DNA from: Rhodocyclaceae bacterium UBA6160
GTDB taxonomy: Bacteria; Pseudomonadota; Gammaproteobacteria; Burkholderiales; Rhodocyclaceae
DNA: 49,421 nt
Reading direction: 5' to 3'
Assembly: GCA_002422995.1 (NCBI GenBank)
Contig: DIUK01000096.1
Span: 1-49,421, forward strand
The notes under the pieces are model-generated. The model saw nothing but the letters and a program-made list of their open reading frames with translations. It was not told the DNA's origin and did not search any database. The position numbers and the translations under genes were made by a program. Positions within the stretch are counted from its first letter, which is position 1. Each line of letters begins with the position of its first letter. Below are positions 21,576-39,968 of the stretch, one piece after another.

Positions 21576-21765
21576 GGCAATGCCGGAAATTTTTGTCGTT
21601 ATTGATTAGTTACAGTCAGAAAATTTTCCAGACTGCGTATCCAGGCTGAATGTCGTTGCACAGAAAGATCGGCAACGATCGCTGGTGTCTGGATACACAT
21701 AAATGATCTGAATACAGTACTGTATTTGTCCTTGCTGGAAATATTTACGGCCAGCAGTTGATGGC

Positions 21766-21777
21766 AATAGTTGCGAC
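21766..21777 (+). repeat. 12-bp direct repeat AATAGTTGCGAC, left copy
   Basis: Identical to 26017-26028. The pair brackets three genes. Confidence 0.7.
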
Positions 21778-21782
21778 CTGCC

Positions 21783-23381: not shown

Positions 23382-23414
23382 GTAGTTGGCGGTTGAGTTG
23401 TCGTGATAAGAATC

Positions 23415-24845
23415 TCAGATCGCGATGAGTGTCACAAAAGCCATGGCAACACAGACAATCCAGCTGCCGCGATCACGCAGGCTGAATACCAGTGGGTCGT
23501 CGTGCATTTCTCCGCGCGAGGTTTTAATCCACAGTCGTGAAGTCCAATACAGCATCAACGGACAAAGCAGCCACAGCAGGCGGGGGTGGCTGTAATGGTC
23601 GCTCACGGCCGGGCTGTCGACATAAAGGGCCAGAATCAGCACAGCAAGATAGCCTGCCGAGATGCCCATGCTGCTGATGACCTGCGCATCATCAAGCCGA
23701 TAGTCGCGACCTTTGGCCGCCTCGCGTGCAAGTTTTTCCATGGTGACCAGTTCTGCAGCGCGTTTGACCAATGCCAGGCTGAGGAAAGTGAACATCGAGA
23801 AGGCCAGCAGCCATGAAGAGATATCGACGCTGATGACAATCGCGCCAGCAATGATGCGTACCGTATAAAGCAGAGCGAGCAAGATCACGTCAATCAGCAC
23901 ATAGGACTTGAAATAGAGCGAATACGACAACGTGAGAGCAAGATAGCTCAGCAGAGCCAGCAAGAACCATAGCGAGATGCTGGCGGCGAGAAGCAGGCCG
24001 CCAAGCAGTAACAGGGCCATGCCAATACAGCCAGGCACGATGCCCAGATTACCCGCAGCGAAGGGTCGCCGGCACTTGCGGGGATGCTTGCGATCACTCG
24101 CAAGATCAAGCAAGTCATTGAGCATGTAGGTCGCCGATGCCACGAGACCGAAAGCAATGAATGCCAGCGCAATAGCCGCCAGGTTGCTGGCGGTGAAGGC
24201 ATGGGATGTCAACAGGGGCACCCCAATCAGCAGGTTTTTCATCCACTGGTGCAGACGCGTTTGCTTTAACCAGATGCGCCACAGCGGGGGCCTGTCATCA
24301 AAAACCTGGCTGACTTCCGTGCGTTGCCGTGCGCCGCGTATCACGCCGGAACCCGGATTCACGACAATCGCCTGGCGCGCACTGGCCCAGATCGGGAAAT
24401 CGGCATGGGCGTTCCCCGCGTAATCGAACGGAGCGCCGTTAGTGATTTTTAATATTGCCGCCAACTTGACTTCGCTACGTAAATTATTCTTGCCATCACT
24501 GCATAACACGCTCTGAAAGATACCAAGACGCTTAGCTATGGGTTGTGCAAGGCAGGCGTCCGATGCAGTGGCAAGGTGAATGGTGCGCCCAGAGGCGTGC
24601 TGCGCCTGCAGGTAAGCAACGAACTCGTTTTGCAAAGGCAGTGTGTCGTTTTCCAGGCTGACGCGCTCGGCGATGCGGGCTTTCAAATGGGCCTTGCCGC
24701 GCAGCAGCCAAAAGGGCATGACAAAGATCATCCATGGCGCTTGCTTGACCAGCGCCAGCGCACTCTCTGCAAGCAGATCCGTCTTGATGAGCGTGCCATC
24801 AAGATCAACAAATAAAGGCACGGATCGGGGGGTGTCTGAGGTCAT
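23415..24845 (-). CDS. HAD-domain/UbiA fusion, putative polyprenyl-phosphate phosphoribosyltransferase
   Basis: N-terminal HAD motif VDLDGTL. UbiA motifs RLHQWMKN, NDLLDLASDRKHPRKCRRPFAAG, LALVKR and RGEMHDDP. Confidence 0.9.
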   Translation of the reverse strand: MTSDTPRSVPLFVDLDGTLIKTDLLAESALALVKQAPWMIFVMPFWLLRGKAHLKARIAERVSLENDTLPLQNEFVAYLQAQHASGRTIHLATASDACLAQPIAKRLGIFQSVLCSDGKNNLRSEVKLAAILKITNGAPFDYAGNAHADFPIWASARQAIVVNPGSGVIRGARQRTEVSQVFDDRPPLWRIWLKQTRLHQWMKNLLIGVPLLTSHAFTASNLAAIALAFIAFGLVASATYMLNDLLDLASDRKHPRKCRRPFAAGNLGIVPGCIGMALLLLGGLLLAASISLWFLLALLSYLALTLSYSLYFKSYVLIDVILLALLYTVRIIAGAIVISVDISSWLLAFSMFTFLSLALVKRAAELVTMEKLAREAAKGRDYRLDDAQVISSMGISAGYLAVLILALYVDSPAVSDHYSHPRLLWLLCPLMLYWTSRLWIKTSRGEMHDDPLVFSLRDRGSWIVCVAMAFVTLIAI

Positions 24846-24930
24846 AATTCAGTCGGGTCAATAGAGAGTGAGGGTGATTATATGCAATTCGCCTATGCCT
24901 GAAAGACGAGTGAATACCCACGCCCGTGTT

Positions 24931-25998
24931 TTATTTAAAACGAATTTTTACGCGCTCGGCAGGCGAGGCAAGCAGCCCCAAGGCAACAGAGATTACCAGT
25001 GCCAAGAGCCAAACGGCAAGGATAGGTATGCCGAGCTGCTTTCCAGCTAAGGTGGCGATGGTATAGCCAGCGCCTTGCCAGAGATAAATTGAGTATCCCG
25101 AGGTGATGAAAGGCTTCAGCCAGACGGCATCACCCAACTTTTCGAACCATGCAACAACGCGTGGCTTGTTGAATACGATAAATAGAAATAAAGAGATCCA
25201 GAGGCATGAGAATAGAAAAAATAATGCGTTCGGGGGGAATTTATTGACCTGCATATCCAGCATATGAATGTCATGGCCAGCAATGACCATGCTGACAAGC
25301 AGCGCTAGTGAAACGAATGCAATCGTCAAAAAGTTGACTCGGCGGAAGTACTCTTTTGAGTGCGCAAGATAATAGCCAAATAACGAGAAAATCAAATAAA
25401 ACGCAGATTGTTTGATCAGGTTTTCAATGTTTCTGGCCGGGAGGTGAACTTCAGAGAGAAAAACCTCCAATAGCGTAACCCCAAGAACCAAGGCTAATAA
25501 ATGAGGGCTCTTGAGCGGACGAAATTTTGTCACGATTGGCATAGCCGCAGTGACAATCAAAAACACAGGAATAAACCACAAATGCCAATTGAGCATGCCA
25601 GTAGAAAAGCCCTGGCCGGCCTTCACTGGGTTTAACCAGGCGCTCGTTAAGTTGAGCAATGAGACTGTCGCACCGCCGCCGTTAAATGACATGGCATATA
25701 CATAAAGAATGCAAAAAATTGCATACACCATGTACGGTAAAAGAATTCTGGTACATCGTGCGGCGAGAAACAAGCTATACGTTTTTATATCTGATTGCCG
25801 CATCGCCTGGCCATTTTTTGACTGTTCATACAAGTAATATGAATAGCCGGAAACGATAAAGATTGCAGGCATCTCAAACAGCAATAAAGCGCTGATGAAT
25901 TGTGGAAGCAGATGCAGCCAAAAGAGCCCATGAATAACGAAGACAATGTATAACATCAACATGCCCCGCGTTGTATCAATGGTTTTTATGCGCGCCAA
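24931..25998 (-). CDS. Acyltransferase family 3 (OafA-like membrane O-acyltransferase)
   Basis: RIKTIDTTRG...H, MPAIFIVSG, RILLPY, HLWFI, KFPP and SIYLWQ. TTG start behind an AAGGGGG RBS. Confidence 0.85.
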   Translation of the reverse strand: MARIKTIDTTRGMLMLYIVFVIHGLFWLHLLPQFISALLLFEMPAIFIVSGYSYYLYEQSKNGQAMRQSDIKTYSLFLAARCTRILLPYMVYAIFCILYVYAMSFNGGGATVSLLNLTSAWLNPVKAGQGFSTGMLNWHLWFIPVFLIVTAAMPIVTKFRPLKSPHLLALVLGVTLLEVFLSEVHLPARNIENLIKQSAFYLIFSLFGYYLAHSKEYFRRVNFLTIAFVSLALLVSMVIAGHDIHMLDMQVNKFPPNALFFLFSCLWISLFLFIVFNKPRVVAWFEKLGDAVWLKPFITSGYSIYLWQGAGYTIATLAGKQLGIPILAVWLLALVISVALGLLASPAERVKIRFK

Positions 25999-26016
25999 TT
26001 GAACCCCCTTATTTTT

Positions 26017-26028
26017 AATAGTTGCGAC
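26017..26028 (+). repeat. 12-bp direct repeat AATAGTTGCGAC, right copy
   Basis: Identical to 21766-21777. Confidence 0.7.
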
Positions 26029-26262
26029 TGGATCTGATGCCGGAGATAGCTAGCCGTCAGAGTGAATGACATCCTTGCACTGACTGCTCGTTACTCGAAC
26101 AGATTGGCGGGTGTTTCTTTGCACACAAACATAATCAATGGCGAACCCATGCTTTGCGCCGCTGTCCAGTTTATCCTGCAGCAACGCTTTGGCCTGAAAG
26201 CGACGCTTAATATCAATGTCCCTCTTTTTCAGATCTCGAGTTTTAGAAGCCGTAGCGAAACG

Positions 26263-27390
26263 TTAAGATTTCAACCTTTCACAATCAATCAGGTCAATCA
26301 GCTCAAGAAGGCCAATCAGGTCCGCCGCCACTGCTGGCGCCTGGGCCCACAGGAAAGATCCAAAGGTCATGCTGTAGTCCCCCATGCCTGCTGCCTCGCC
26401 AGAGCATTGGCCGACACGGCCTTTATCATCGGTCACTGATTCGATAGCGGAGCGGGCCCGATCCAGCATGCGGGGCTGAAATACGGCCTCGGCAAAATTT
26501 GCTTGGCGCCAGCGTGCCAGCGCATAGGCTACTAACGCCGTGACAGAGCTATCCGGTGCTGCGAACGGCTCATCCAGCCGCCAGGGCCAGTGGCCGTCTT
26601 CGCGCTGGCAGGTGGCGAGCTTTTCCAGCAACTGCTGGCCACGCGCAAGCCAGCGGGTTTTATCTTCGCCCTCGGGCAATTCGCAGACGGTATCGACCAC
26701 GCCAACCAACAGCCAGCCCACGCCGCGCCCCCAACCGGCGATACCACTGGTTTCAAGCGTGTTGGCATCAAAGGCATGAAATATCCAGCCATCGTCAGCC
26801 CGGCCATGCTGCCATAGGGCATCTAGCTGGCGCAGGGCGATGTTGGCGTAATGTGGCTTAGCGGTTAAACGCGAAAGCCGGGCCAGAAACGGGCAGATAA
26901 AGGCCACGGTATCGACCAATACCCAATGTTTTCCCGCTGTGTAGGGAATGCAGCCTTTTTGTGCACCTGGCAGGCACGCAAACGCCTCGCCCTGCGCCTT
27001 GGCGAAAGTCAGGTAACGCGGATTTTGCGTCAATTCGAATAATCTCAGCGCCGCATAACCCAGCCCGCCGCGATCTATCGCCACGCCAGCGAGAGTTGCC
27101 TGCCCTTGCGGGTCGATCAGGCCGTGAAAGCATTTTTCTATCCACGCACATTCTTTTTTGGCTTGATCGCTTGAAGCATTAAGGCATAAAAAAGCCAGGC
27201 CCAGCGGCCAGGTGAGCGCACCCGAGGGGCGGCCAAGCAAACGATAACCCAGCCGCGATAAACGCCAGCCCGATAACTTGAGTGCTGAACGCACCCCATG
27301 CGAGCGAGTGCCCAACCACCAGGCATAGCGTTGCGCAGCAGAAACCAGCCGGGCATGGCGGGCAGCGCTGATGATTGTTTGCGGCGCCAT
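26263..27390 (-). CDS. Glycoside hydrolase family 88/105-like protein (YteR-like unsaturated uronyl hydrolase fold)
   Basis: VLVDTVAFICPFL, IFHAFD, WGRGVGW, QREDGHW and DSSVTA correspond to GH105 motifs. Confidence 0.75.
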   Translation of the reverse strand: MAPQTIISAARHARLVSAAQRYAWWLGTRSHGVRSALKLSGWRLSRLGYRLLGRPSGALTWPLGLAFLCLNASSDQAKKECAWIEKCFHGLIDPQGQATLAGVAIDRGGLGYAALRLFELTQNPRYLTFAKAQGEAFACLPGAQKGCIPYTAGKHWVLVDTVAFICPFLARLSRLTAKPHYANIALRQLDALWQHGRADDGWIFHAFDANTLETSGIAGWGRGVGWLLVGVVDTVCELPEGEDKTRWLARGQQLLEKLATCQREDGHWPWRLDEPFAAPDSSVTALVAYALARWRQANFAEAVFQPRMLDRARSAIESVTDDKGRVGQCSGEAAGMGDYSMTFGSFLWAQAPAVAADLIGLLELIDLIDCERLKS

Positions 27391-27398
27391 CAACGGGT

Positions 27399-28352
27399 TT
27401 ACACCAACAGGTGGCTTTTTAGTGCCAGAACCGCCTGACGCAAAGGGGTGAGGGCGATGTAGGCGGCTGAACGCAGCGGCAAGCCCCCGCCTTTGAGTGC
27501 GCGGAAAAACGCGCGTCGGGCAACCGCGGGCGAGCCCTGCCAGAAGTGGTTATAGCCGTGGGTGAATTCACTTGTGGCCAGCCGTTTTTTGAATTCTTCT
27601 GCGGGCCAATTTGTGCCATCGGGGTTGGTTAGCCCCCAGCGGCTCACCGCGATTTTAAGCAGCTCGGTGAGATGGTTTTCCGGATCCAAACGTCGCATCG
27701 CGCTGGCCTCGTGAATGCGGTAGAGCGCCACCGGGCCATCCAGCGCATGCATCGGGTAGATGCGCGAAACTTTGAGCCAGAACAGATAATCCTCACCGAT
27801 GCGCATCGACGCATCAAATCCACCCAGCAGCGTGAACACCTCGCGACGTATCACGGCGGTATTCATGCCCACCAGCAAGCCACCGAGCAAGCGGGTATAC
27901 AGCCAGCCCGAGCGTTCCGCCTCGCAGCGGGTGAGCGCGCTGCAATCCTGCGTCAGGCTGGACGCATCCGGAAAGCGACCGTCGGCTGCGCGCGTCCATT
28001 TGGTAAAGCCGCCAAACACGCAGCCGACTTCCGGGTGCTGTTCAAAATAGTGAATCTGTGCCGCCAGCTTGCCGGGAAACCAGACATCGTCGGCATCTAA
28101 AAACGCAAAAAATTGCCCACGGGCAAGCTGCATGCCGGTGTTTCTGGCAGTCGAAACCCCGCTGCCTGCCAGGCGATGCACGCGAATTCGCGCATCAAAC
28201 TGCGTGAGCGTCTGGTAATCAAAGTCATCCGAACCATCGTCAATGACGATGATTTCAAGATCGCTGAAGCTCTGAGAGCAAACGCTGGCCAAGGCCTCGT
28301 GAATGAATTCACGCCCATTGCGCACGGGGATGATGACGGAAACGGCGGGCAT
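27399..28352 (-). CDS. Glycosyltransferase family 2
   Basis: VSVIIP, VIDDGS, GVSTARNTG, FLDADD and GEDY. Confidence 0.92.
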   Translation of the reverse strand: MPAVSVIIPVRNGREFIHEALASVCSQSFSDLEIIVIDDGSDDFDYQTLTQFDARIRVHRLAGSGVSTARNTGMQLARGQFFAFLDADDVWFPGKLAAQIHYFEQHPEVGCVFGGFTKWTRAADGRFPDASSLTQDCSALTRCEAERSGWLYTRLLGGLLVGMNTAVIRREVFTLLGGFDASMRIGEDYLFWLKVSRIYPMHALDGPVALYRIHEASAMRRLDPENHLTELLKIAVSRWGLTNPDGTNWPAEEFKKRLATSEFTHGYNHFWQGSPAVARRAFFRALKGGGLPLRSAAYIALTPLRQAVLALKSHLLV

Positions 28353-29611
28353 CAGGACGGTTTAAGCTGGTGGGTAATAAAGTTCAAGGTTTCCATTTCA
28401 AGCTGGTTGCGTCGAGCAGCGATGTGAGCGCGCACCTGCGCCGGATTGGCCAATAAATCTATAGCGCGCAAATACAGTGCATCCGGGTTGAAGTTGGCTG
28501 CCGAGAAGCAGTTTTCAGATAAACCCATCAGATCGAAAAACCCCTGATGCTTGATGTCATACGCCAGCGCAAGGCAGGGTGTGCCAGCGCTGGTGGCCAG
28601 GATGCAAGAATGCAGCATGCCGCCGATGTGAAGATCGAGTTTGGCGTATTCACGTGCTAATGCCACCGTATCACCAGCGCCAGCGCGTTGCGTCCCGGTG
28701 GGAATTTTTTTGATTTTTATGCCGCGCTGGGCAAGCAATTTAGGCAGAACATTTTCTGTACCGTAATGCACAAAATATCTAAATTCCGCGCCGTTTTCAT
28801 GTTGCAGCTTGAGTAGTACATCACAATAAGCCTGTAGATTCTTCTTGAGCAGCGCGGTAGAGTTTTTGCCGTGAAATGAAAAATTAACGCCGATAATTGG
28901 CGGCGCATTTTCTGCCAGGTGTTTTTTGTCAAATGGTTTTTGGATACCCATGAGATGACAAAAATGCAGCGCAGGATCACTAATCAGCACTACAGGTTTT
29001 GAAGTCAGCGGCGTCAGAATAGATTGAGTCGTCGCGTCACGTACGGAGATGCCCTGAACGCGTTCGAGCAATTTGGCGACCATAGCAGCATCTTCAGGAT
29101 GAAAGCCGCTCGGTTTGATTGCCGTTGTTTGACCTGGCTTATTTAAGCCAACCCCAAAGAAAAAAGCAGAAATAGTGTGTTCCTGCAAATAAGCGAGATC
29201 ATCTTTAATGCGCTCGGCAAGTCGGCCATCGGGGTTGAGGAAAAAATAACCGCTGCCGCTAAAAATCAGCATCGTTTTTTTTGCATCGATATCGTTAATC
29301 TCATGCTGGTCAAGCCGCCCCCAGTTGATGGGCGATATGTCCGCGATAGGCAGAGCATGCTTGATTAACGCCGTGGTGGATTCTGCAATGGCAACGTCAC
29401 CCAGGTTGATGGCATCTCGCCCCTCATAGTTTTGGTAATCCAGTTTTGAAACATCTCCTGCGCGAAAGCGTGCGGCATCACGACTGCCATGGTAATAACG
29501 CCGCGCAGCAAAGCGAACACGCTCAACGAGGGTCAATGCCTCATGGGATTCCGCCTCAGCACCATAGACAATGGTTTGAGCTCCATACATGATTACTTTA
29601 TTGGCATTCAT
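28352..29611 (-). CDS. Polysaccharide pyruvyl transferase family protein
   Basis: NLGDVAI, ISVRD, SDPA, GMLHS and LAYDIK. Confidence 0.85.
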   Translation of the reverse strand: MNANKVIMYGAQTIVYGAEAESHEALTLVERVRFAARRYYHGSRDAARFRAGDVSKLDYQNYEGRDAINLGDVAIAESTTALIKHALPIADISPINWGRLDQHEINDIDAKKTMLIFSGSGYFFLNPDGRLAERIKDDLAYLQEHTISAFFFGVGLNKPGQTTAIKPSGFHPEDAAMVAKLLERVQGISVRDATTQSILTPLTSKPVVLISDPALHFCHLMGIQKPFDKKHLAENAPPIIGVNFSFHGKNSTALLKKNLQAYCDVLLKLQHENGAEFRYFVHYGTENVLPKLLAQRGIKIKKIPTGTQRAGAGDTVALAREYAKLDLHIGGMLHSCILATSAGTPCLALAYDIKHQGFFDLMGLSENCFSAANFNPDALYLRAIDLLANPAQVRAHIAARRNQLEMETLNFITHQLKPS

Positions 29612-29739
29612 GGCGTTTACTTGGTCATAGGCGGTAATAGCCTAGCGTTTATTGTTGTTACATAAAAGAAAAAGCATTTTCTGGCTTTCTTTAGCATGCA
29701 AATTCAATTCAGTTTCAATTTGATTCATTCGCTTGCCTG

Positions 29740-30909
29740 TTAATTTTTAACAAGTCCGGCCAGTATGTTCTCATAAAACAAAGCCAGCTTTTGATTCATG
29801 AATTCTTCGGACAAATGTGTTTTGGCGAATTTTTGCGCCGCCTGGCCGAGCGTTTGCCTGGCGGCGGTATCCAGCCGCGCGACGGACAGCAGCGCCTGGC
29901 ACCAATCTGCCGGGGCAGCCGGATTGCAGCGCTGTACTGCGGTGGATGCACCGTACACCGAGTTGAAGACTTCATCATCGGGGACGACAGCAGGAATGCC
30001 GCTGGCCAGCGCCTCGGCGGTTGTCAGAGAAAAGCCTTCTTCTGCGCTAGTTGAAATGTAGCCATCGCTCGCCTGGTAATAGGGGGCGGTATTGGCGACT
30101 TGTCCGGCCAGGATGACTTTGTCTTGCAGTTGTAGCGCGTCAATTTGAGTTCTTAGCGCAGCCAATTCAGGGCCATCGCCCACAATCAGCAAGCGGCTTT
30201 TGGGGTGGCTTTTAACGAGCTCGGCAAATACCTGCAAGGCGAACACAGGACGTTTTATGGTGTCAAGGCGGCCGCAAAACATGAGTACGAAATCTTCCTT
30301 AGCAAAGCCCAGGCGCTCGCGTAATGCTTGCCGGGCATCGGCATTGGGTTGGAAGCGCTCGGTGTCAATGCCATTATGGATCACTTCAATCGGCGTGGCG
30401 GCAGGGATCAAGTCTTGATACAGGCGGACGAAGGAATCTTTCACCGGGGCGGAAATCGTATAAACACCTTTTAAGCTGCGCAGTGCCTGTTTGGCAAAAG
30501 GGAGTGATTTTTTTGGCAGGGTTTTACTGTCAAATCTGCAATGCACGCCCATCACAAAAGGAATGTCGGCGGCGCTTAAAACATAGGCCAGCGAGATACC
30601 GACAAAATTCCAGGGCAAGGCAATATGCGCCAGCTCTATTTTGTAATAACGCAGCATGGGGATGCTGAGCTGAGCCAGCCAGCGAAACGGCGCGGCCAGG
30701 TGTTGCCGTTCGATAAATTTATATGGCTGCCAGTAGATGTATTGCCCACCGGCGGTTTTGATGTCGCGCTGCCATTGCGTCAGCTTGACAAAGCGGGGCG
30801 TGGCGACAAAAACCTGATGGCCAAGACGGGTCAATAGTTTCGTTTCCGCTTCAATGCGCCGTTCCATGCCGCCCAAGGCGGTTGAAATGCTGCAAATCAA
30901 TATTTTCAT
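29740..30909 (-). CDS. Glycosyltransferase family 4
   Basis: MKILI..GGMERR, IHNGIDTERF, GRLDTIK and EEGFSLTTAEALASG. The start at 30909 avoids overlap with the upstream gene. Confidence 0.9.
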   Translation of the reverse strand: MKILICSISTALGGMERRIEAETKLLTRLGHQVFVATPRFVKLTQWQRDIKTAGGQYIYWQPYKFIERQHLAAPFRWLAQLSIPMLRYYKIELAHIALPWNFVGISLAYVLSAADIPFVMGVHCRFDSKTLPKKSLPFAKQALRSLKGVYTISAPVKDSFVRLYQDLIPAATPIEVIHNGIDTERFQPNADARQALRERLGFAKEDFVLMFCGRLDTIKRPVFALQVFAELVKSHPKSRLLIVGDGPELAALRTQIDALQLQDKVILAGQVANTAPYYQASDGYISTSAEEGFSLTTAEALASGIPAVVPDDEVFNSVYGASTAVQRCNPAAPADWCQALLSVARLDTAARQTLGQAAQKFAKTHLSEEFMNQKLALFYENILAGLVKN

Positions 30910-30938
30910 GACAGGGTCCCGGGTGCTTTTGTCGGCAA

Positions 30939-31640
30939 TCAGGTGCGTTCCGCAAGTAAAAAGAAACCGCCGCAAAACAGGCCGGGGTTGCGCCTGGCCA
31001 GCCAGTCGATCAGCCCGGTCAGTCGCAACTGCCGCAGTTGATGCGACATCGGCACGGCGGGCGCTACCGGTGATAAATCGCTTATTAAACGAAAATCTGT
31101 GCTCGCCAGTAATTCACGGATGGAGCCTGGGGTAAAAAAACGGATATGCGGGTTGTCCCAATCGTGGCTGTCCGGGAAAAAGCGGTTCCAGTGAATCCCC
31201 GCGCCTAACAGCATGCGCAGACGCCCGGTGAGGGTGAAATGATTGGGGACGTTTATCAACAGTTTTCCGCCGGGTTTCAGGAGCCGGTGGGCTTCGCGCA
31301 GCGCGTGCTCAGGGGCTGCCAGATGTTCCAGCACGTCCAGGCACAATATCCAGTCGTATTGGGCGGAATCCAAAGGCAAAGCATTCTCCAGATTCGCCAC
31401 AAGGGTGTTCACGCCAAGGCTGTTGGCATGCGCTGCGGCGTCAGCTAAGCCTTCCACGCCGAGCACCTCGTTTTCTGGCTGCAGGATTGCCAGGTTAGCG
31501 CCAGCGCCTGAGCCGAGTTCCAGCACGCGGCAACCCGTGATGCGATGCGATTTTTTCAGTTGGGCGATGGTGTTGCGAATGTGGTCACGTTCGCCAAAAT
31601 CCACGGTGAGTCTTTCAAAACTGTAATTCACGGCTGTCAT
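30939..31640 (-). CDS. Class I SAM-dependent methyltransferase
   Basis: VLELGSGAG, DVLEHL, LKPGG and HIRFFT. Confidence 0.9.
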   Translation of the reverse strand: MTAVNYSFERLTVDFGERDHIRNTIAQLKKSHRITGCRVLELGSGAGANLAILQPENEVLGVEGLADAAAHANSLGVNTLVANLENALPLDSAQYDWILCLDVLEHLAAPEHALREAHRLLKPGGKLLINVPNHFTLTGRLRMLLGAGIHWNRFFPDSHDWDNPHIRFFTPGSIRELLASTDFRLISDLSPVAPAVPMSHQLRQLRLTGLIDWLARRNPGLFCGGFFLLAERT

Positions 31641-31667
31641 TAAAAACTCCTGAAATTTTTTTACGAT

Positions 31668-32831
31668 TCAAGCAGGCTCAAAAATATTTCTCAAGCGGAG
31701 GGCAAAAGCATTGAACGACAGGGTGCTGGAGACTGCACGGTGGCCATTGAGCGCAATGGTTTTTGCATAGTTGTTGTCTGATAACAAGCGAATGCAGTGA
31801 TGGGCAAAGTCATCATTCGATTCACCAACAAGGATATCTTGCCCTGCAACAAGGTAGTTGTTCCAGCCGGTGAATGAATAGCTGCTCGCTACCACAGGGC
31901 GTTGATGTGCACAGGCTTCTGGCACCTTAATGTTTGATCCGCCGCCAGACAACACAGGGACAACACAGACAGCGGCTTCTTTATATGCGGCATCCAGATC
32001 GTCAACATAGCCATCGGCAGTGCAATTGGGGGCGACATTCCAGCGGCGCAGATTGTCGGGCGTGGCTTTGCCGACGATTCTGAAACGGGCTGTGGGTGTT
32101 TTTTCAAGAATCTTCGGCCAGATATGAGCCAGAAAATGATCGACGGCACTGATGTTGGGCTGCCAGGACATAAAGCCGACAAACAACAGGGTCTTGCCGT
32201 CAGATGCTGAGTAATCGGCCGGGTGCCGGGGGAAGGTCGGCATGTTGCTGAGTAACCCGCCTTTTAGCTGGGGGAAGGCTTTTTGGTCGCGCTCACAAAC
32301 AAACAGGAAGGTGGCGTTTTTGAGGCGTGCCGCGTTTAAGCGCCATGTGATGAGGCGTTGATTAAGCCACTTGACCGCTTCTTTGAGGATGGCGCGCGGG
32401 GAGTTCAAGAGTGACCATGAAATGCTGTAAATCGGGTCGTCAAAGTCAATGATGAGTGGTTTGTTGCCGGGCAAATTGAATTTCAGGTAAGGCGTGATGT
32501 AGCGGCAAACGATGCAGTCGTACTGATCGAAATCGATGGTGTTGGCAAGCAGGGTTGAGAGCCGTTTTGAGGGTAGCCCGCACCAGGCGCGATCCAGCAG
32601 GGTTTTCGGCACATAGTTGAGGTGGAAGAGCTTGCCGCCGCCGAGTTCAGCGGGTAGGTCGGATGTGTGGTTAGGTGCATCGGTTTCAGATAACAAGACC
32701 ACATCTGTCGTGGCGTATTGACCAAGTGCCTTGAGCAGAAAGTGCGTTCGTTGCCCTGCGCCATAGTTGGTGCATTGCGGGTCGTGGTAGGTCAACAAGA
32801 GGCTGCGCCGTGGGGTTTGGGGCGAAGTCAT
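31668..32831 (-). CDS. Glycosyltransferase family 4-like
   Basis: GAGQRT, LFVGFMSWQPN, GYVDDL and GGGSNIKVPEA. Confidence 0.85.
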   Translation of the reverse strand: MTSPQTPRRSLLLTYHDPQCTNYGAGQRTHFLLKALGQYATTDVVLLSETDAPNHTSDLPAELGGGKLFHLNYVPKTLLDRAWCGLPSKRLSTLLANTIDFDQYDCIVCRYITPYLKFNLPGNKPLIIDFDDPIYSISWSLLNSPRAILKEAVKWLNQRLITWRLNAARLKNATFLFVCERDQKAFPQLKGGLLSNMPTFPRHPADYSASDGKTLLFVGFMSWQPNISAVDHFLAHIWPKILEKTPTARFRIVGKATPDNLRRWNVAPNCTADGYVDDLDAAYKEAAVCVVPVLSGGGSNIKVPEACAHQRPVVASSYSFTGWNNYLVAGQDILVGESNDDFAHHCIRLLSDNNYAKTIALNGHRAVSSTLSFNAFALRLRNIFEPA

Positions 32832-32893
32832 GACTTATGTCGCCGTCTCGCCAGCGCCGACTTTTTGGCGGGTTATACAGTGGGTGTGCATCG

Positions 32894-33703
32894 TTAGGTT
32901 GTTTCCGGTTTGCCCGTATTCAAATACTTGAGTTTGAGATACTTGAGATAAACCGTATCCCGTACATACTTGCCAAGTATCCGCCCCGGTGCGCCATCGC
33001 GCCAGCCGCCGTAGAGCAGGTGCCAGCGCGCCCAGATCAGCCAGGGGTAGACATAAATTTTTAGCGGGGAAGATGGCTCGCCTTTGGCCTGCATGTCTTC
33101 TGCGGCGAGTTTTGTGTACAGGCCGATTTTTGCGTAAAGGTCATCAATGCTGTCGCAGCTGTAATGCAGCAGAGGTTCGTTGATCTGGCCGATCTTGGCG
33201 CCATCCAGTTGCAGTTGTTCATGGATGATGCGGCTGCCGCGATGGCTTAAGCGTTCACGCTGAAACAGGCGGACAATGAATTCAGGGGTTTTGACGGGGT
33301 AAAAATTGCGCACTGGCTGCCCCATGAAAAACCAGTTTCTGCGGATGGAAAATCCGTCAGGGGTGATGCCTGCGTCGGTTTGAAAATGGGTTTTTTTTAA
33401 TTGTTGCAAGCGTTTGCCGAGTGCTTCTGAAACGACTTCATCCGAATCCAGCGCCAGCACCCACGGTTGGGTGCAGTGGTCTTCGGCAAAGATGCGCTGG
33501 TCGCGAAAGTTGTCAAAACTGCGCGTGAGAATGGTTGCGCCAAATTGGCGGGCTATTGTCAGTGTTTGGTCTGTGCTGCCGGAATCGACAATGAGAATTT
33601 CATCCGCTATCTGCTGGATGGAGGCGAGCACCTGCGCCAGACGGCGTTCACTGTTATGGGTGAGGATATAGCAGGAAAGCGGCGTGAGAGGTGTTGTCGT
33701 CAT
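32894..33703 (-). CDS. Glycosyltransferase family 2 (WaaE/KdtX-like)
   Basis: VDSGSTDQT, LDSDE, RLF, IHE and LLHYS. Confidence 0.9.
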   Translation of the reverse strand: MTTTPLTPLSCYILTHNSERRLAQVLASIQQIADEILIVDSGSTDQTLTIARQFGATILTRSFDNFRDQRIFAEDHCTQPWVLALDSDEVVSEALGKRLQQLKKTHFQTDAGITPDGFSIRRNWFFMGQPVRNFYPVKTPEFIVRLFQRERLSHRGSRIIHEQLQLDGAKIGQINEPLLHYSCDSIDDLYAKIGLYTKLAAEDMQAKGEPSSPLKIYVYPWLIWARWHLLYGGWRDGAPGRILGKYVRDTVYLKYLKLKYLNTGKPETT

Positions 33704-34551
33704 ATCGAGAAACGAGGCAGGCCGAAATGGTCGCGCAGTTGGTCTGAAATGCGTTGATAGACGGCCTTGGGTTTGAGCTTTACAAAGTGGGCGAACGAGG
33801 GCGAGTGTTGCACGTGCGTGCGCGGGAAAAAGCGCCCCAGCAGTCGGTAGTCATCATGGCGGGTAATTTCGCTGGTGTGTGTAAAAGGGTCAAAGCGAAT
33901 GTTGGTGGCGTTAATCGTCGTGATTTGTATGCTGCCTTCCGCTGGCTGGTAGCTGACTGTCGGGGTATGCAGCTTGCCCAGCGTTGCGCCAATGAAGGGT
34001 TCATCGGCCAGTTGCAGTTTGTTGCGATGAAACGAGCCGAGCAGTTCTTTGTGGTTTTCCACAAGGTCCAGCGCGGTGGCGAAAAAATGGTCGGCTTCGG
34101 CGCCCTGGCGGAAGTAAAACACACCGGAATTCAAGGTGCGCATGTAGTCAATGCCAAGTTTTTTAATCACTTCGGCAATATCAAAGCCATACCAGCGGCC
34201 CGAGGTGACTTTGCCGCCGGGGCTGCAAAAGCCGGGGCTTTGAAATTTTGCCCAGTGCCGGTCCATGTCGTTTTTGAGCAATATGCAGTCGGAATCGACA
34301 AACATCGTCTCGTCAAACGGGCTGACTTCATTGACGCGCAATTTATTCAGGCAGCCGTGAAAGCCGGGTTTGGCGTCCATAAAAGTGATCTGGTCGATGA
34401 ACTTGCGGTAGCTCTCGGGGATGCTCATGGTGCGGTCGGTGACGATGCACACTGGCCGCGTGGGGTCGTTGAGCTTTAATGAGAGCACCAGGTTCATGGC
34501 CAGATCAAGATAAAACGGCGTGCCGGTGGCGAGGGTGAGATAGCCTTGCAT
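33700..34551 (-). CDS. GT-A fold glycosyltransferase (GT8-like)
   Basis: LNKL, MFVDSDC (DxD), LNSGVFYF, ADEP and FAHF. CAGGA RBS. Confidence 0.7.
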   Translation of the reverse strand: MQGYLTLATGTPFYLDLAMNLVLSLKLNDPTRPVCIVTDRTMSIPESYRKFIDQITFMDAKPGFHGCLNKLRVNEVSPFDETMFVDSDCILLKNDMDRHWAKFQSPGFCSPGGKVTSGRWYGFDIAEVIKKLGIDYMRTLNSGVFYFRQGAEADHFFATALDLVENHKELLGSFHRNKLQLADEPFIGATLGKLHTPTVSYQPAEGSIQITTINATNIRFDPFTHTSEITRHDDYRLLGRFFPRTHVQHSPSFAHFVKLKPKAVYQRISDQLRDHFGLPRFSI

Positions 34552-34602
34552 GGGTGTCCTGTTGAGGTGTATCGGGTGTGTGCGAATGATGATAGAGAAA
34601 TC

Positions 34603-34995
34603 TCAAGGTTGCCTACTAATTAGTTTTTCCCCTCTCCCCTTGCGGGAGAGGGGTTGGGGGAGAGGGGGAAGCGTTACTGCCGTCATAATAGTTTCCAACA
34701 CGCCTTCTAGATTATTCATAATTTCATTGTTCCAGAACCGTAGCACCTTGAACCCTTGCGCACGCAACCAGGCATCACGGCTTTCATCACGAGGCGCATC
34801 ATTATGTTGCCCGCCATCTGCTTCTACGATCAGGCGCGCTCCAAAATGTACAAAATCGACGACATAAAAACCCATCGGTTGCTGGCGTCTGAATTTTTCG
34901 CCATTCAGTCGATGCGCACGCAAGTGTTGCCACAGCCTGGTCTCGCTTTCGGTCATGTGGTGTCGCAGATGCTTGGCAAATTCCCGCTGCTCCAT
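34603..34995 (-). CDS. DUF559 / Vsr-like PD-(D/E)XK endonuclease domain protein
   Basis: LRHHMTESETRLWQHLR, KFRRQQPMGFYVVDF, VEADGGQH and RDAWLRAQGFKVLRFWNNEI. The ATG at 34995 follows a GGAGAGG SD lying inside the flanking repeat. Confidence 0.9.
   Translation of the reverse strand: MEQREFAKHLRHHMTESETRLWQHLRAHRLNGEKFRRQQPMGFYVVDFVHFGARLIVEADGGQHNDAPRDESRDAWLRAQGFKVLRFWNNEIMNNLEGVLETIMTAVTLPPLPQPLSRKGRGEKLISRQP
34629..34667 (-). repeat. REP-like palindromic repeat, copy A (inverted relative to B and C)
   Basis: CCCCTCTCCC-CTTGC-GGGAGAGGGG (10-bp stem) followed by TTGGGGGAGAGGGG. Reverse complement of copy B apart from one G. Confidence 0.9.
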
Positions 34996-35000
34996 GTATA

Positions 35001-35039
35001 CCCCTCTCCCCAACCCCTCTCCCGCAAGGGGAGAGGGGC
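35001..35039 (+). repeat. REP-like palindromic repeat, copy B
   Basis: CCCCTCTCCCCAACCCCTCTCCCGCAAGGGGAGAGGGGC. Confidence 0.9.
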
Positions 35040-35074
35040 CAGAGACTTTATCAAGTGTTTGTGCGCTCACTCTG

Positions 35075-35105
35075 CCCAACCCCTCTCCCGCAAGGGGAGA
35101 GGGGC
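35075..35105 (+). repeat. REP-like palindromic repeat, copy C
   Basis: 31 nt identical to 35009-35039, 66 nt downstream. Confidence 0.9.
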
Positions 35106-35128
35106 TTTTGACGTGATATCAAGGATAT

Positions 35129-36610
35129 TCAGTGGCATCTGCTCATGCGCCACTGGGTGAGTTTATCCATGATGGTTGATTCCAGCCCTTCAGGCCGTCC
35201 GATCAAGTGCCAGCTCGCCAATGACCATAGCATGAAGAACACCGCGCCAGAAAGTATAGCAGCGGCAAGACTCAGTGCTGGCGAGGCGATTATCGCTGGC
35301 AGCGAGATGATGTAATTGACGAGTCCATACATTAAGGTTGCGCCTGCTAGCGGGCGGACCACGGTTTTAAGCGCAGCACTCATGCGCAGCTGACAAATTT
35401 TTTGGGTGTAGAGCAATGTTACCAGCGAGCTGACGACAGAGCTGATTGTTCGTGCCAGGGCAAGCCCGATCAGATGAAAGCCGGGGACGAGCGCAATCGC
35501 GGCAAGTACAAAGCTGGCAAATTCGATCCAGATAATCTGGCTTTGCGAGCGGGTGTGGCCATGCAGAATCAGCAAAGTGTTGGCCGGGGATGTCATGGTT
35601 TGCAGTACAGAAGCCAAGGCAAACAGCGAAACAAAAGGTACGGCATCCATCCATTTGCTGCCCAGGGCGATGTGGGTTGCTTGAGCGGCAATGGCCATAA
35701 ACCCGAGCCCGATGGGCCAGATGACGGTATTCACTGCGGCGATGGTTTTGATCACCGCCTGATTGGTGCGCTCGATATTTCCTTCAAGAGACGAGAGCAC
35801 AGGTAAAAGCGCTTTGAGCATGGCCGGGCCAATTTCGCCGACGGGCATCTGGCCGAAATCAGAACCGACGTTATACAGCCCGAACTGCGCCGTGGTGCCG
35901 ATGCGGCCCGCAGCAAGTTCGTCCCCTTTGTGCAAGATGAATTGGCCCACGCGCGCCACCATCAGCCATTTGGTGATCGCCCATATCTCGCCAATTTTTG
36001 AGGTGTTCCAGCGCGGGCGATAGGGGTGCCACCAATAGCTCAAGAAAACAGGCACGGTATACCCGGCGATGATGCCGATGACCAGGGCACGGTAATCGCG
36101 CAGTATCATGCCGGCGATTACGGTGGTGACGACGCTGGCAATTTTTGTGGCGGTCGAGATTTTGAAATCCAGCGTGTAGATAAATGCCTTGCGCGCCAGC
36201 ACCTGGCCGATATTGCTAAAGCTGATAAAGATAACGCTGGCAGAAAGTGCCAGAAGCACAAAGGTTAGCCGTGGTTCATTGAAGTATTCAAGCGCTAGCG
36301 GTAGCGCCAGCAGCAGCATGAGGCCCGCGCCCAGCCCTTGGAGTATGCCTAGCGTCCAGGCTGAATCAATTTCATCGCGGGTAACTTCTGCCTTGCGCAG
36401 CAAGGCAACGGATGGGCCGAAATCGAGAAAGGTTTGAATCAGGCCGACAACCAGCATGCCCATGGCGACAATGCCGTAATCTTCCGGCATGAGCAGGCGC
36501 GCCATGATGACGGTATTGATAAAGCCCAGCCCTTTGATGAGCCAGCGGGTGCCGACTGTCCATGCGGCGCCACGGATAAGATTGGTTTTTGGGTTGTTGG
36601 AAGGCGCCAT
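35129..36610 (-). CDS. wzx: Wzx-type polysaccharide flippase (WzxC-like, MOP superfamily)
   Basis: GAAWT, MARLLMPEDYGIVAM, GLYN, LGSKWMDAVP and about 12-14 TMs. Confidence 0.9.
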   Translation of the reverse strand: MAPSNNPKTNLIRGAAWTVGTRWLIKGLGFINTVIMARLLMPEDYGIVAMGMLVVGLIQTFLDFGPSVALLRKAEVTRDEIDSAWTLGILQGLGAGLMLLLALPLALEYFNEPRLTFVLLALSASVIFISFSNIGQVLARKAFIYTLDFKISTATKIASVVTTVIAGMILRDYRALVIGIIAGYTVPVFLSYWWHPYRPRWNTSKIGEIWAITKWLMVARVGQFILHKGDELAAGRIGTTAQFGLYNVGSDFGQMPVGEIGPAMLKALLPVLSSLEGNIERTNQAVIKTIAAVNTVIWPIGLGFMAIAAQATHIALGSKWMDAVPFVSLFALASVLQTMTSPANTLLILHGHTRSQSQIIWIEFASFVLAAIALVPGFHLIGLALARTISSVVSSLVTLLYTQKICQLRMSAALKTVVRPLAGATLMYGLVNYIISLPAIIASPALSLAAAILSGAVFFMLWSLASWHLIGRPEGLESTIMDKLTQWRMSRCH

Positions 36611-36614
36611 AGAA

Positions 36615-39600
36615 TTAAACCAGTTTAGCCGATGCTTGTTGTCTGTTGTATGCCTTTGGGTTAAGAGTGCTGATCAGGGCGAGGGTTATCAATAGAAAGA
36701 GAAAGCGTGGCGCATCAATCAATGTGTCGAAAAGCCCGACGATCAAGAAGCCCGTGGTGGCCGCCAGGGCAATGCCGGCGGCATGGTTGCCTTGCCAGGC
36801 GGCGCGACTGGCAAGGTAGATAGTGGTGGCAAAAAACAGGCTAAAAGCGAGTACGCCTAGCCACCCTTGGTCAAATAAAATAGCCAGTGGCATGCTTTTG
36901 ATGTGCCAGGCAAGGTGTTCATCTGTAGAAAAATACCAATGATCCATGTGGCGTGAAAAGTCGCCATTGGCAATGAGTTCGTTGCCGTCAAGCGTGGTGA
37001 GTTGGATGTTGTCTACATCAACCAGAATGCCATTATTGAAGAATGATAATTTAACGGGTCTTTGGCTAATCCAGCGCCCGCTGCCAAGTTCGCCGGTGTT
37101 GATGGTTTGTTCTACGGTCTGCCACTGGTTGGCTTGTGCAATGCGCTGGCTTTTTTGCCATGTGGCGCAGCGGGATGAGGCAAGCATCCATTTTTCACAT
37201 AACGCAATGCCAACGGTTGCGCCTGGGCTGGCAGAGCGCACATTAAACCGCAGGCGATAGCGTTGGTGCGGTTCAACTGAAACAATCTGCTCAACATACA
37301 TGGCATAGCCGGGGGCGATGCGCAAAAAGCGGTTGTCTGCTTCAGCGCTTAGCGCGTGGACGGACGGGTGAAAGGTTTCGCGGCTACGCCAAAAGTGCGC
37401 ATCAGGAAAACGGCCTATGCCCATGCCGAAAATTTCTGTGAACCACCCGCTATCGCGTATCGACAGCCCATCTTGCCAGTGGGCTTGACGCACGCCTAAA
37501 TCGGTACTGACTTGGGACATGCGTTTTTGCACAAAGCTGCCTTCAAAGAGTGGTACGGCAACGGCAAGTGCGGCGCCTGCTAGCAGGGTAATTGTTACAA
37601 GGCGTTTGATTTTTTTGCTGTGTCCTGCCAGGAGTGCTAGCAAGGCCAGCCCGCAAGCAATGCCATAGCCAGCAAATCCATTGCGCGAGACGGTGGCCAT
37701 GAGTGTGTAGGTGCTGGCGAGCAGCAAAATGACGCCGGCAACCCGCAGCAACCATTGATGGGTAGAAATGATCAGGTAAAGCAGGAAGGGGGTTGCTACG
37801 GCGAGGTAGCACTCTACATAAGCGCCGCCTGTGTGAATGGCAGAAAAAGGTCCTGTGGCACGGTAATCAGAGCTGAAATTGAGTAATCCGCCAAACATGA
37901 ATTTTTCTCGCACCATGATGGCCACGACCGCCGCCAGGCCAAGTGTCATGCCCCAGGCAAACCATTGGAAAACCGATTTCTCGGCGGTGGTGAGACGGCG
38001 CACCAGGCCTGCAAATAGTAATGCCCAGACCAGTCCCTTGCTGATACGCAAGGCGTTGAACTGGCTCAAGTAGGTGATAAACGCATTGTCGTCAATGGAT
38101 TGCCAGGGGAAAAGTGCGTGCAGGGTGCTGAAGAAAAAGCTGAGCACCAGTAGTCCTAGCGCCCATTTAACGGCGGGGTGCCAAGGGGCGCTGTGCAGTG
38201 GTGTTCGGGCATAGCCCACCGCCAGGGTAATTGCCAGCAAAGCATCGAATTCATCCAGATAAAAGCGGCCGCTCCAGGGGGCAAGGTCAAATAAGGGTAA
38301 TGCAGCAGGGATAATCAACAGTGCGGCGAGGGGTTGATACCAAACAGCTACGGCGCTGGCAAAAAAGACGGTTGCCAACAGCCAAGGGTGGACAGGAAAT
38401 TTGATGAGCCAGTAAGCAAGCCCTGCGGCGACGAGACCAAGTACGGCCAGGTCAAGTTTGGCAGGCTGTTTGGGTATGGGCAGGCTGGATGCCGGGGCTT
38501 TGGCTGCAGAGGTTGATGCTGATTTTTCTGTTCTTGATTGAGCTGCGAGTGCTTGAATGTTCTGCATGGGATCGGCGTGAGGTATTTCATTGTTTGCATG
38601 CAGTGAGCGGTTTTCGGGTGACGGAGAAAGAAGGCGCTGCATGATGAGCCAGGTAGCATGAGTTGCAGCAACAGCAATCAGGATGTTCGTGGGGTCTGCA
38701 TGTGTTCTGGTTGAAAAGAGTTTCGCGGTTTCAAGCGCGGCGGATAGTAAAAAAGGCAAAGTTATTGTCAGGTGCTTTGAGCGAGACGAGAAAGCGGCAA
38801 TGACGCCCAGCGGTGCGAAAAGCAGCGCAACGGACAAAAGGCTGGTTAAGGCATTGGCTTCACTCACATAGTAATGGTAATAAAACGGCAGAAAATGGAG
38901 CGCGGTTAGCGCATTGCTTGCCGTATCGAGGTTGCCCCAAGGGCGATAAAACCAATGGGCGAATAGACCGAGGCCGATTAAGTAAATTAGCGTGAGCTTT
39001 CCTGTGTGGCGTTGTAATTGGTTTTGCCATAGGCTGATTTTTGTTTGGAAAGCATGGTGGGATGAATGCGCTAGTTTGCTCGATGCCTGGGTCCACAGCA
39101 TGCCACCAAGGTAAACCCCTGCAGCTCGGGTGAGGGTTGAGGCACCTTGGCTGACACCAGAGTAGGTAAAAAATTGCAGCGCTTCAATACTGATGCCGAG
39201 CAGGAAACCACTGAATATCAAGCGCAGAGAAAGTTTGTTTGCCAGGCTGCGGTTTGATGAGTGGCGGGTATGCCGAGCGATTAAGATGCCTAAAGGCGAA
39301 ATGGCGGCAACTTCAACGCAAAGGGCGATCAAGGTGCGAAATGGATTATGGGGTGGGTTGTTGGCAAATAACCAGCCCCAGCGGTCGGCGGTCATTTTTG
39401 CTGATATTTCATGTGCTGATAAAAGAAAATCAAAAGGGAAAAGGCAGTACAAAATGTAGGCGGCGACATAGAGCTTGAGTAACTGGGTGACGCCTTCTTG
39501 GCTGTCAGTTGGCTTAAAGGCCATCAAGCGTCGAATGCGATGGCTCAGTGGCCAGGCGCAGAGAATTCCCAGTGTGCCGCCTATCACTTCAGCCAGCAGA

Positions 39601-39968
39601 TCATTTTGTGAGACTGTGCGTGGCGGGAAGAAAATTTGCGCAAACTCCACACCAAAAGCCAGGAGTGTGACGGCACAGAGGCTGATGAGTAATGCGCCCG
39701 CTAATGCCAGGCCTTTTAGCCGGCCGACGAATCGCTCCGCTAAAAGAAGACCCGCTGGGAAATACAGCACACCGTTGGCAATCCAGTCAGCACGGCTATC
39801 AAGACCCAGGGCTAGAAAAGGTGTTTGCTCAAATTTTGCCCATGCCCATGCCAGGCTGTGAGGCTGAAAATTCAGTGGAACCAGGCTGCCATAGATGATG
39901 AAAATTAAGGCGGTAATGAGCCAGAAGGGGTGCAAGGGTGGTGCTGTTTTTGGATGGTCAAGGCGCAT
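36615..39968 (-). CDS. Large membrane protein: VanZ-like repeats fused to an O-antigen ligase-like domain with an inserted carbohydrate-binding-like module
   Basis: IYGSLVPLNF, DWIANGVLYFP, VEFAQIFFPPRTVSQND and later VanZ-like segments. These are followed by ATVSRNG, GMGIGRFP, ELIANGDF and WHIKSMPLAILFDQG. Confidence 0.8.
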   Translation of the reverse strand: MRLDHPKTAPPLHPFWLITALIFIIYGSLVPLNFQPHSLAWAWAKFEQTPFLALGLDSRADWIANGVLYFPAGLLLAERFVGRLKGLALAGALLISLCAVTLLAFGVEFAQIFFPPRTVSQNDLLAEVIGGTLGILCAWPLSHRIRRLMAFKPTDSQEGVTQLLKLYVAAYILYCLFPFDFLLSAHEISAKMTADRWGWLFANNPPHNPFRTLIALCVEVAAISPLGILIARHTRHSSNRSLANKLSLRLIFSGFLLGISIEALQFFTYSGVSQGASTLTRAAGVYLGGMLWTQASSKLAHSSHHAFQTKISLWQNQLQRHTGKLTLIYLIGLGLFAHWFYRPWGNLDTASNALTALHFLPFYYHYYVSEANALTSLLSVALLFAPLGVIAAFSSRSKHLTITLPFLLSAALETAKLFSTRTHADPTNILIAVAATHATWLIMQRLLSPSPENRSLHANNEIPHADPMQNIQALAAQSRTEKSASTSAAKAPASSLPIPKQPAKLDLAVLGLVAAGLAYWLIKFPVHPWLLATVFFASAVAVWYQPLAALLIIPAALPLFDLAPWSGRFYLDEFDALLAITLAVGYARTPLHSAPWHPAVKWALGLLVLSFFFSTLHALFPWQSIDDNAFITYLSQFNALRISKGLVWALLFAGLVRRLTTAEKSVFQWFAWGMTLGLAAVVAIMVREKFMFGGLLNFSSDYRATGPFSAIHTGGAYVECYLAVATPFLLYLIISTHQWLLRVAGVILLLASTYTLMATVSRNGFAGYGIACGLALLALLAGHSKKIKRLVTITLLAGAALAVAVPLFEGSFVQKRMSQVSTDLGVRQAHWQDGLSIRDSGWFTEIFGMGIGRFPDAHFWRSRETFHPSVHALSAEADNRFLRIAPGYAMYVEQIVSVEPHQRYRLRFNVRSASPGATVGIALCEKWMLASSRCATWQKSQRIAQANQWQTVEQTINTGELGSGRWISQRPVKLSFFNNGILVDVDNIQLTTLDGNELIANGDFSRHMDHWYFSTDEHLAWHIKSMPLAILFDQGWLGVLAFSLFFATTIYLASRAAWQGNHAAGIALAATTGFLIVGLFDTLIDAPRFLFLLITLALISTLNPKAYNRQQASAKLV

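Follow-up and report, generated by a model that had tools for sequence, protein, structure and literature searches.

Our analysis of the window, i.e. the complete stretch of 49,421 nucleotides of Rhodocyclaceae DNA studied here, indicates that the DUF559 gene next to wzx belongs to a nested mobile structure. In the reading that we favor, at a probability of roughly 0.6, a transposase acting in trans likely brought a DUF559 gene framed by BoxC/TM repeats (TM-DUF559-TM) into wzx inside ISKra4-type ends, and the encoded enzyme likely nicks DNA at or near its own repeats and helps to spread them.

The window is part of an exosortase-linked polysaccharide cluster on contig C98 of genome G000. On the minus strand, at 34603..34995, it encodes a 130-aa predicted nuclease that is YcjD-like and of the Vsr/EDxHD fold, and the Pfam match (PF04480, E 1.6e-41) bears out the DUF559 ORF of the original prediction. 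The gene is single-copy in G000 (1.75 Mb, 60% complete). Pfam delimits a core domain of residues 2-106 (34675-34995, minus strand), and the final ~20 codons of the ORF run through repeat copy A and its flank as a C-terminal tail. Upstream lies the gene of a Wzx-type flippase (35129..36610, minus strand; PF13440, E 1e-56), downstream a 283-aa ORF of the polysaccharide cluster (33700..34551, minus strand) that is conserved in the genus and follows wzx directly in empty alleles, with a gap of 37-65 bp. The proposed setting between wzx and a 'GT' holds on the wzx side; the 'GT' is unverified, the downstream ORF giving no Pfam match even at E 0.01. Positions 36615-39968 encode a 1117-aa protein whose sole recognised domain is N-terminal and VanZ-like.

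Three hairpins, each with a perfect 10-bp stem and a 5-nt loop, are found where they had been predicted, at 34629-34653 (A), 35014-35038 (B) and 35080-35104 (C), with A inverted relative to B and C. A and B match as inverted copies over 31 nt at 100%, and over 38 of 39 nt when the leader is included (read from the sequence); A and C match in inverted orientation over 30 nt, and B and C are direct copies spaced 66 bp apart. The full unit of repeat A (34629..34667, plus strand) lies at the 3' end of the DUF559 gene and consists of a C-rich arm, a 5-nt loop, a G-rich arm, a second 5-nt loop and a mirror G-rich third strand. Repeat B (35001..35038, minus strand) is a unit of the same BoxC/TM type inverted to A, and a repeat occupies the equivalent position in most of the best 80 of 215 relatives. 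Its G-rich third strand directly precedes the DUF559 start codon and may serve as the ribosome-binding site of the gene. Pattern searches revealed neither sigma-70 promoters nor terminators in 34500-35300, and Rfam gave no match near the gathering score in 34400-35300. As had been claimed, no further hairpin copy exists in the window; the genome-wide count adds one more, on contig C114 of G000, and a reversed-pattern control of the search returned 0 matches. This other TM copy (C114, 13571-13593) interrupts a gene that, judged by eye, is probably NAD-dependent epimerase-like and belongs to another polysaccharide cluster.

The repeats had been described as REP-like and undescribed, a view that we revise, since they belong to the BoxC/PIT/TM family (PMC4666352). 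By their sequence pattern, we classify hairpins A-C as BoxC/TM (intrastrand-triplex-type) repeats rather than REPs; the letters preceding the three hairpins differ, so that there is no GTAG (or CGTC) tag. Holder et al. 2015 (PMC4666352), in the main text, define TMECO and equate it with BoxC/PIT. The strict TMECO consensus (9-nt stems, loop of 3-6, second loop of 3) has 0 exact matches in the window, and A fits it with one mismatch. If the loops may be 1-6 nt long, as in the general three-tract pattern (the ITxF rule given in section 10 of that article), A and B fit, their second loops measuring 5 and 4 nt, and C requires 2 mismatches. The repeats share with TMECO the three-tract layout, near-identical stems and frequent inverted pairs, but differ in the second loop (4-5 nt instead of 3) and in that they frame a nuclease-fold gene. 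When the unit was compared with E. coli genomes by blastn, the sole match was a 40-bp hairpin stretch. Known since the 1990s, BoxC/PIT/TM repeats are present in over 260 genomes, and PMC4666352 leaves their origin and spread open. Its authors state that they found no mobility genes beside TM motifs, and the main text contains 0 matches for 'nuclease' or 'ycjD'; Table S2 of the article lists genes flanking TMs and could name ycjD. Our literature search, which covered non-subscription papers, returned no paper tying DUF559, YcjD or COG2852 to BoxC/TM.

Hairpin C, which has a truncated third strand, forms together with a 36-nt unique spacer a segment (35040..35105, minus strand) that is absent in G011, G002 and G004; the B/C pair reflects a 66-bp duplication-plus-spacer that is absent from the congeners. 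The spacer shows no match beyond chance in G000 itself or in the compared loci, and at 35040-35075 it is bounded by a 5-bp inverted repeat. An assembly artefact as the source of the B/C pair was ruled out, given that contigs from 3 of 4 sequencing runs bridge B and C. There is a hint that the extra copy varies between strains, because coverage in run X7 is ~17x for the spacer and ~184x for the DUF559 gene.

The encoded protein matches N. gonorrhoeae NGO0050 (PDB 3HRL) at E 1.9e-30. Its structure model (pLDDT 89.8) has 3HRL as the best Foldseek match and next the catalytic domain of I-Bth0305I (3R3P; E 3.9e-4, rank 2-3, TM 0.6), followed more weakly by 1VSR. Pfam, NCBIfam and fold agree on a DUF559/Vsr-like protein, which does not classify as an HUH/Y1 tyrosine transposase. 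An alignment of 47 rows shows no variation at D47, E58, D60 and H64 and hardly any at D70, and these five are likely the catalytic residues; the conservation count omits 3 of 82 core sequences that contain a stop in the fixed frame. The protein is under purifying selection, with dN/dS of 0.06-0.12 for most pairs of relatives and of 0.26-0.54, from tiny counts, among three near-identical congeners. Neither Pfam nor the model reveals an extra DNA-binding or strand-transfer domain in the 107-residue DUF559 domain. The Vsr mismatch-repair nuclease has the gene of its partner cytosine methyltransferase adjacent to it; here, unlike for Vsr, the neighbors are the flippase and an unassigned ORF, with no cytosine methyltransferase gene. 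The catalytic fold is common to I-Bth0305I, Vsr and the DUF559 protein, as are conserved acidic residues and a His in similar order (by eye). In contrast to I-Bth0305I, the NUMOD DNA-binding region, the intron and the intein are all absent here, and many unrelated sites are occupied. I-Bth0305I bears N-terminal NUMODs, as its description in PMC3239194 states, which are absent here, the DUF559 domain beginning at residue 2. NGO0050 and E. coli YcjD (51% identical) belong to the same family, and a literature search turned up no function for either.

Comparison within the genus reveals the history of the site. An orthologue of wzx is present in 8 of 13 genus genomes, and the junction behind it is filled in four cases (G000, G011, G004 and a second junction of G002) and empty in four others (G001, G005, G007 and the first, divergent junction of G002), so that the empty junctions called for by the original prediction exist; in G001 and G005, 63-65 bp separate wzx from the gene that follows. 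In G006, a solo hairpin connects the left flank with the right repeat. Read in the orientation of the gene, the two C-rich arms repeat each other directly, and recombination between them would therefore yield this solo hairpin; we infer that G006 lost its DUF559 gene in this manner. The prediction was to fall if repeats were not enriched near DUF559 genes and the gene was vertically conserved at this site; repeats are enriched there, as detailed below, and vertical conservation is not what the alleles display. In G006 (L025) and G007 (L023), the junction also holds a RelE-family toxin gene (a Pfam match in G006) and a likely antitoxin gene, and hence accepts several kinds of cargo. On contig C52 of G002 (L024, L003), the 3' end of wzx and the start of the next gene are duplicated at 83% identity around what by eye is an apparent toxin-antitoxin pair and an integrase-like fragment, one junction being empty and the other filled.

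The boundaries of the insertion lie outside the hairpins. Sequence common to close relatives reaches 35-45 bp past them, and a 23-nt end consensus, drawn by eye from those loci on which it was first scored, attains at least 16 of 23 positions at one or both ends of 13 of 82 loci, compared with 0 of 610 control windows. Among the loci with two such ends, 7 of 9 (6 of 8 sites) are flanked by an 8-9-bp direct repeat at 75% or better, against 5.7% of 70 cross pairs; no clear duplication was seen in 2 of these 9 or in 10 of 29 short elements. When the end motif was searched for independently, 153 loci emerged. In five of them, the ends lie ~1.5 kb apart around similar ORFs of 350-364 aa, one of which, of 350 aa (L146), was tested and matches NF033572 (ISKra4) at E 6.7e-56 with 190 bits, below the cut-off of 205. 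The L146 element also has an overlapping 111-aa ORF and hence a split two-ORF transposase layout, such as that described for ISMich2 (Guerillot et al., PMC3942029). The same article gives inverted repeats of 18-39 bp and direct repeats of 8-9 bp for the ISKra4-related superfamily. The same ends are found on 31 short elements, and 19 of the 29 with flanks show an 8-9-bp repeat. The DUF559 loci with ISKra4 ends all fall into one 24-row clade (support 100/99) that covers several families; clustering of the ISKra4-end label, assigned by eye, within a 28-row tree is not significant, 38 of 500 shuffles being as low, and we draw on the enclosing clade alone. Palindromic doublets are frequent in the short ISKra4-ended elements L108, L137, L166, L169, L175, L224, L226 and L258, TM pairs being present in 11 of the 31. 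GTAG-REP-like doublets were noted by eye in L137 and L169, and 'GTAG..CTAC', a loose pattern without a control, occurs in 9 of the 31 short elements.

In the window, a decayed left end of such a non-autonomous ISKra4-type element is preserved at 35118..35140 (minus strand), with 10-13 of 23 positions identical to five IS/MITE ends; the equivalent end position in G002 reaches 14-18 of 23. The left end is homologous to those of G002 and G004 at the junction and provides the new stop codon of wzx (35129-35131), and the empty alleles place the insertion point a few codons before the original stop. Next to it, at 35141..35149 (minus strand), one copy of the 9-bp target survives. This target is duplicated in G002 (9 of 9) and G004 (8 of 9) and single in G001, G005 and G007, and the window copy has lost the right end together with the second target copy. 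No ISKra4 transposase was found in G000 (60% complete), nor one above the cut-off in the 13 genus genomes. Since intact relatives keep inverted ends and an 8-9-bp duplication, and the same ends also flank ISKra4-like transposases, the cassette probably arrived inside ISKra4-type ends through a DDE transposase in trans. Compared with derivatives of the ISKra4 family (p-MULT 4, ISMich2-like), it has the same ~23-bp inverted ends, 8-9-bp duplication and lack of an internal transposase, but its passenger is a repeat-framed nuclease cassette, and the window copy is without the right end and the second target copy. The outer layer is a non-autonomous ISKra4-type cassette of a known kind and accounts for the insertion here. 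Non-autonomous IS derivatives of this sort go by the term mobile insertion cassette (MIC). These data revise three parts of the original prediction: a target-site duplication, which it had not found, does exist in congeners along with outer inverted ends ~35-45 bp past the hairpins; the inserted unit is bounded by the ISKra4-type ends and the 9-bp duplication and not by A and B; and the move to the wzx site, which had been ascribed to the nuclease itself, is explained by an ISKra4 transposase in trans.

The inner layer is not peculiar to this site. For the best 80 of 215 confirmed DUF559 relatives, taken for flank analysis, hairpins are present upstream of 73, downstream of 75 and on both sides of 69, and the density of 193 hairpins in 28.6 kb near the genes versus 26 in 163 kb far from them (~42-fold) confirms the anticipated concentration of repeats around DUF559 genes. 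A stricter three-strand detector retains both sides in 53 of the 80 close loci. When applied order-wide to the top-scoring DUF559 loci (n=29), it detects repeats on both sides of 8, on one side of 14 and on neither side of 7, so that the repeat frame is common, not universal. At least 27 different neighborhoods occur among 82 loci, a rough lower figure in which one 35-locus flank cluster is possibly chained by shared domains, and DUF559 proteins that are 78-95% identical occupy many unrelated sites. Some of these sites lie within other genes: the congeners G008 (L009) and G010 (L010) carry a different TM-DUF559-TM in frame within an MmeI-type restriction-modification gene, in the part encoding the methyltransferase domain, and L298, L300, L304 and L310 comprise in-frame cassettes in radical-SAM and asparagine-synthase genes and one at the C terminus of a TatD frame. 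The asparagine-synthase inserts, from two genomes, contain tandem hairpin arrays with a period of ~41 bp. Foreign inserts of ~35-70 bp recur in TM arms, in the right repeat of L027 and L028 and in the left repeat of L030, L032 and L046, and would fit the repair of breaks there.

Repeat load follows the gene at the level of whole genomes, too. Among 150 near-complete genomes of the order, a sample in which kin are not independent and gene-linked copies are counted, at least 10 hairpins are present in 37 of 49 genomes with DUF559 (E <=1e-20) and in 11 of 101 without, with medians of 21 and 1. Hairpins are more numerous with DUF559 in 16 of 18 families holding both kinds of genome; 12 of the 49 genomes with a strong DUF559 have fewer than 10. 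The load in DUF559-bearing genomes rises to 256 hairpins. No repeat expansion is apparent here, because G000 (60% complete) has one other, dispersed copy and congeners with the gene have 1-13. In E. coli K-12, ycjD (1351407-1351760) has a strict TMECO 168 bp away (1351205-1351239) and a second hairpin overlapping its 3' end, the ycjD repeats being confined to the 3' side. At this fabI-ycjD-sapF locus (L026), the 3' end of ycjD is partly duplicated between its two hairpins. Four chosen E. coli strains agree loosely with this trend: K-12, which carries ycjD, has 23 TMs, and the three that lack the gene have 11 (Sakai), 6 and 1. The gene is present in 3378 of 5426 E. coli genomes; in some lineages it replaces eefRABCD, which PMC12817139 reports as lost at least twice.

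Altogether, the partnership of nuclease and repeat appears as a well-supported correlation in these genome comparisons. Its organization resembles that of REPtrons (RAYT/TnpA-REP with REP/REPIN) and TIRtrons (PMC3733652), in which a single-copy gene under purifying selection is likewise framed by inverted, dispersed palindromes, repeat load tracks the gene and doublets without a gene occur. In contrast to a REPtron, the enzyme has a Vsr/EDxHD-type domain of the PD-(D/E)XK superfamily and is no HUH/Y1 transposase, and the repeats contain a third strand of the triplex type but no GTAG tag. The inner layer is thus REPtron-like in anatomy and statistics and, because enzyme type and repeat type differ, falls outside the REPtrons; the enzyme would play its part by analogy.

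Could the repeats spread without the enzyme? TMs might be unstable through their folding and be spread by host repair and other transposases, with DUF559 as cargo or as a resolver of the structures. According to PMC4666352, TMs adopt triplex structures in vitro in the absence of any enzyme and mark more rearranged loci, and at the wzx site the ISKra4 ends fully account for mobility. TM-like hairpins are, in addition, present in 11 of the 31 short ISKra4-ended elements, among which one (L179) holds a DUF559 gene, and a broken one, and repeats persist in genomes without DUF559, such as Sakai and the 11 of 101 with at least 10 hairpins. However, a passive or protective enzyme leaves unexplained both the fixed inverted framing at many unrelated sites, including those in frame within genes, and the tracking of repeat load with the gene within families. 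We therefore regard this possibility as rather unlikely, with about one chance in four.

Improbable, in our view, is a DUF559 protein acting as a minimal transposase on A and B as terminal repeats, with direct excision and integration of TM-gene-TM. Such an activity would be in keeping with the 69 of 82 loci without any end scoring at least 16, i.e. a bare unit at many sites, with the in-frame units described above (MmeI-type, radical-SAM and asparagine-synthase genes, C terminus of the TatD frame), and with TM doublets that occur without the gene. Yet, directly outside the TM arms, an 8-9-bp duplication was found in 0 of 49 loci and duplications of 4-6 bp are no commoner than in cross pairs, these 49 being the loci with both arms placeable out of 65 without ISKra4 ends. 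The gene is, moreover, single-copy in G000, no additional domain for DNA binding or strand transfer accompanies the 107-residue one, and the true boundaries at the wzx site lie outside the TMs.

The gene itself appears to have moved between congeners. Of 94 conserved codons in DUF559, G000 and G011 differ at 4, whereas control windows (n=307, from 120 genes in 21 regions, ~0.42 of 2.9 Mb) have a lowest silent divergence of 12.6% and a median of 49%; tested against the least diverged neighboring gene (18%), the difference has a binomial P of 6e-5. Silent sites of DUF559 are free to vary, because G004 shows a dS of 0.34-0.42 in the gene, and a silent divergence below all 307 control windows therefore argues for lateral exchange. 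At the wzx end and at either end of the cassette, G002 and G004 resemble each other most, and they have an insertion in the right repeat in common, but their DUF559 genes are the most divergent (31 of 321 nt). The empty allele of G007 groups with filled alleles on wzx trees. The pattern suggests that the gene was swapped within its repeat frame or that the allele was exchanged between species. Over 19513-37000 of the window, silent divergence from G011 is 0.18-0.36 against a genome median of 0.49, which suggests block exchange of this part of the polysaccharide cluster; some homogenisation is thus seen around the cassette as well. As a free-standing homing endonuclease, DUF559 would cleave the empty wzx junction and thereby propagate its own allele within the genus. 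This reading would agree with the fold, closest after 3HRL to the I-Bth0305I catalytic domain, with the peak of G000 identity to G011 or G002 on the cassette (extending ~100 bp into wzx for G011) and with the placement of the G007 allele, but is very improbable given that one sequence-specific cutter cannot target the many unrelated sites of 78-95% identical proteins, that the N-terminal NUMOD region which PMC3239194 describes in I-Bth0305I is absent, that run X7 contains a relative's empty-junction contig alongside filled ones, and that G004 has no identity peak.

We thus return to the nested reading, for which we propose the following course of events. It would begin at a single junction, at which empty, filled and solo-hairpin alleles can be seen side by side. 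The cassette would have entered by DDE transposition, to which the inverted ends shared with ISKra4 and the 8-9-bp duplication in relatives point, and the ISKra4-type ends would likewise have spread one DUF559 clade across several families. With the right end and a target copy lost, the window copy is now likely fixed. Recombination may then have exchanged the gene among congeneric species, a cause suggested by the allele pattern, and removed it from G006, where one hairpin was left. Finally, DUF559 would act as the cognate, structure-guided nuclease of BoxC/TM, in a role like that of RAYT for REPs: a nick in the folded repeat followed by host repair could seed new repeats, and nick and repair could also mobilise the bare TM-gene-TM unit while leaving no target duplication.

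In a wider sense, and more tentatively, at odds that we put slightly below even, DUF559/YcjD proteins may be dedicated BoxC/triplex enzymes and a second, non-HUH class of repeat spreaders. Such an enzyme would be a minimal Vsr/EDxHD-fold nuclease able to read a DNA end folded into three strands, to mobilise the repeat-framed gene that encodes it without duplicating the target, to swap between existing repeat frames and to hitch-hike in the ends of true IS elements. Mobility at a DUF559 site need not stem from the nuclease, and the present locus adds a delivery route (ISKra4 ends), a full natural set of alleles and an indication that exchange between species was limited to the gene. The link to a conserved nuclease makes the origin and spread of BoxC testable in E. 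coli K-12, with ycjD and its 23 TMs. If true, our proposal would provide a function for DUF559, and possibly a nuclease that reads non-B DNA.
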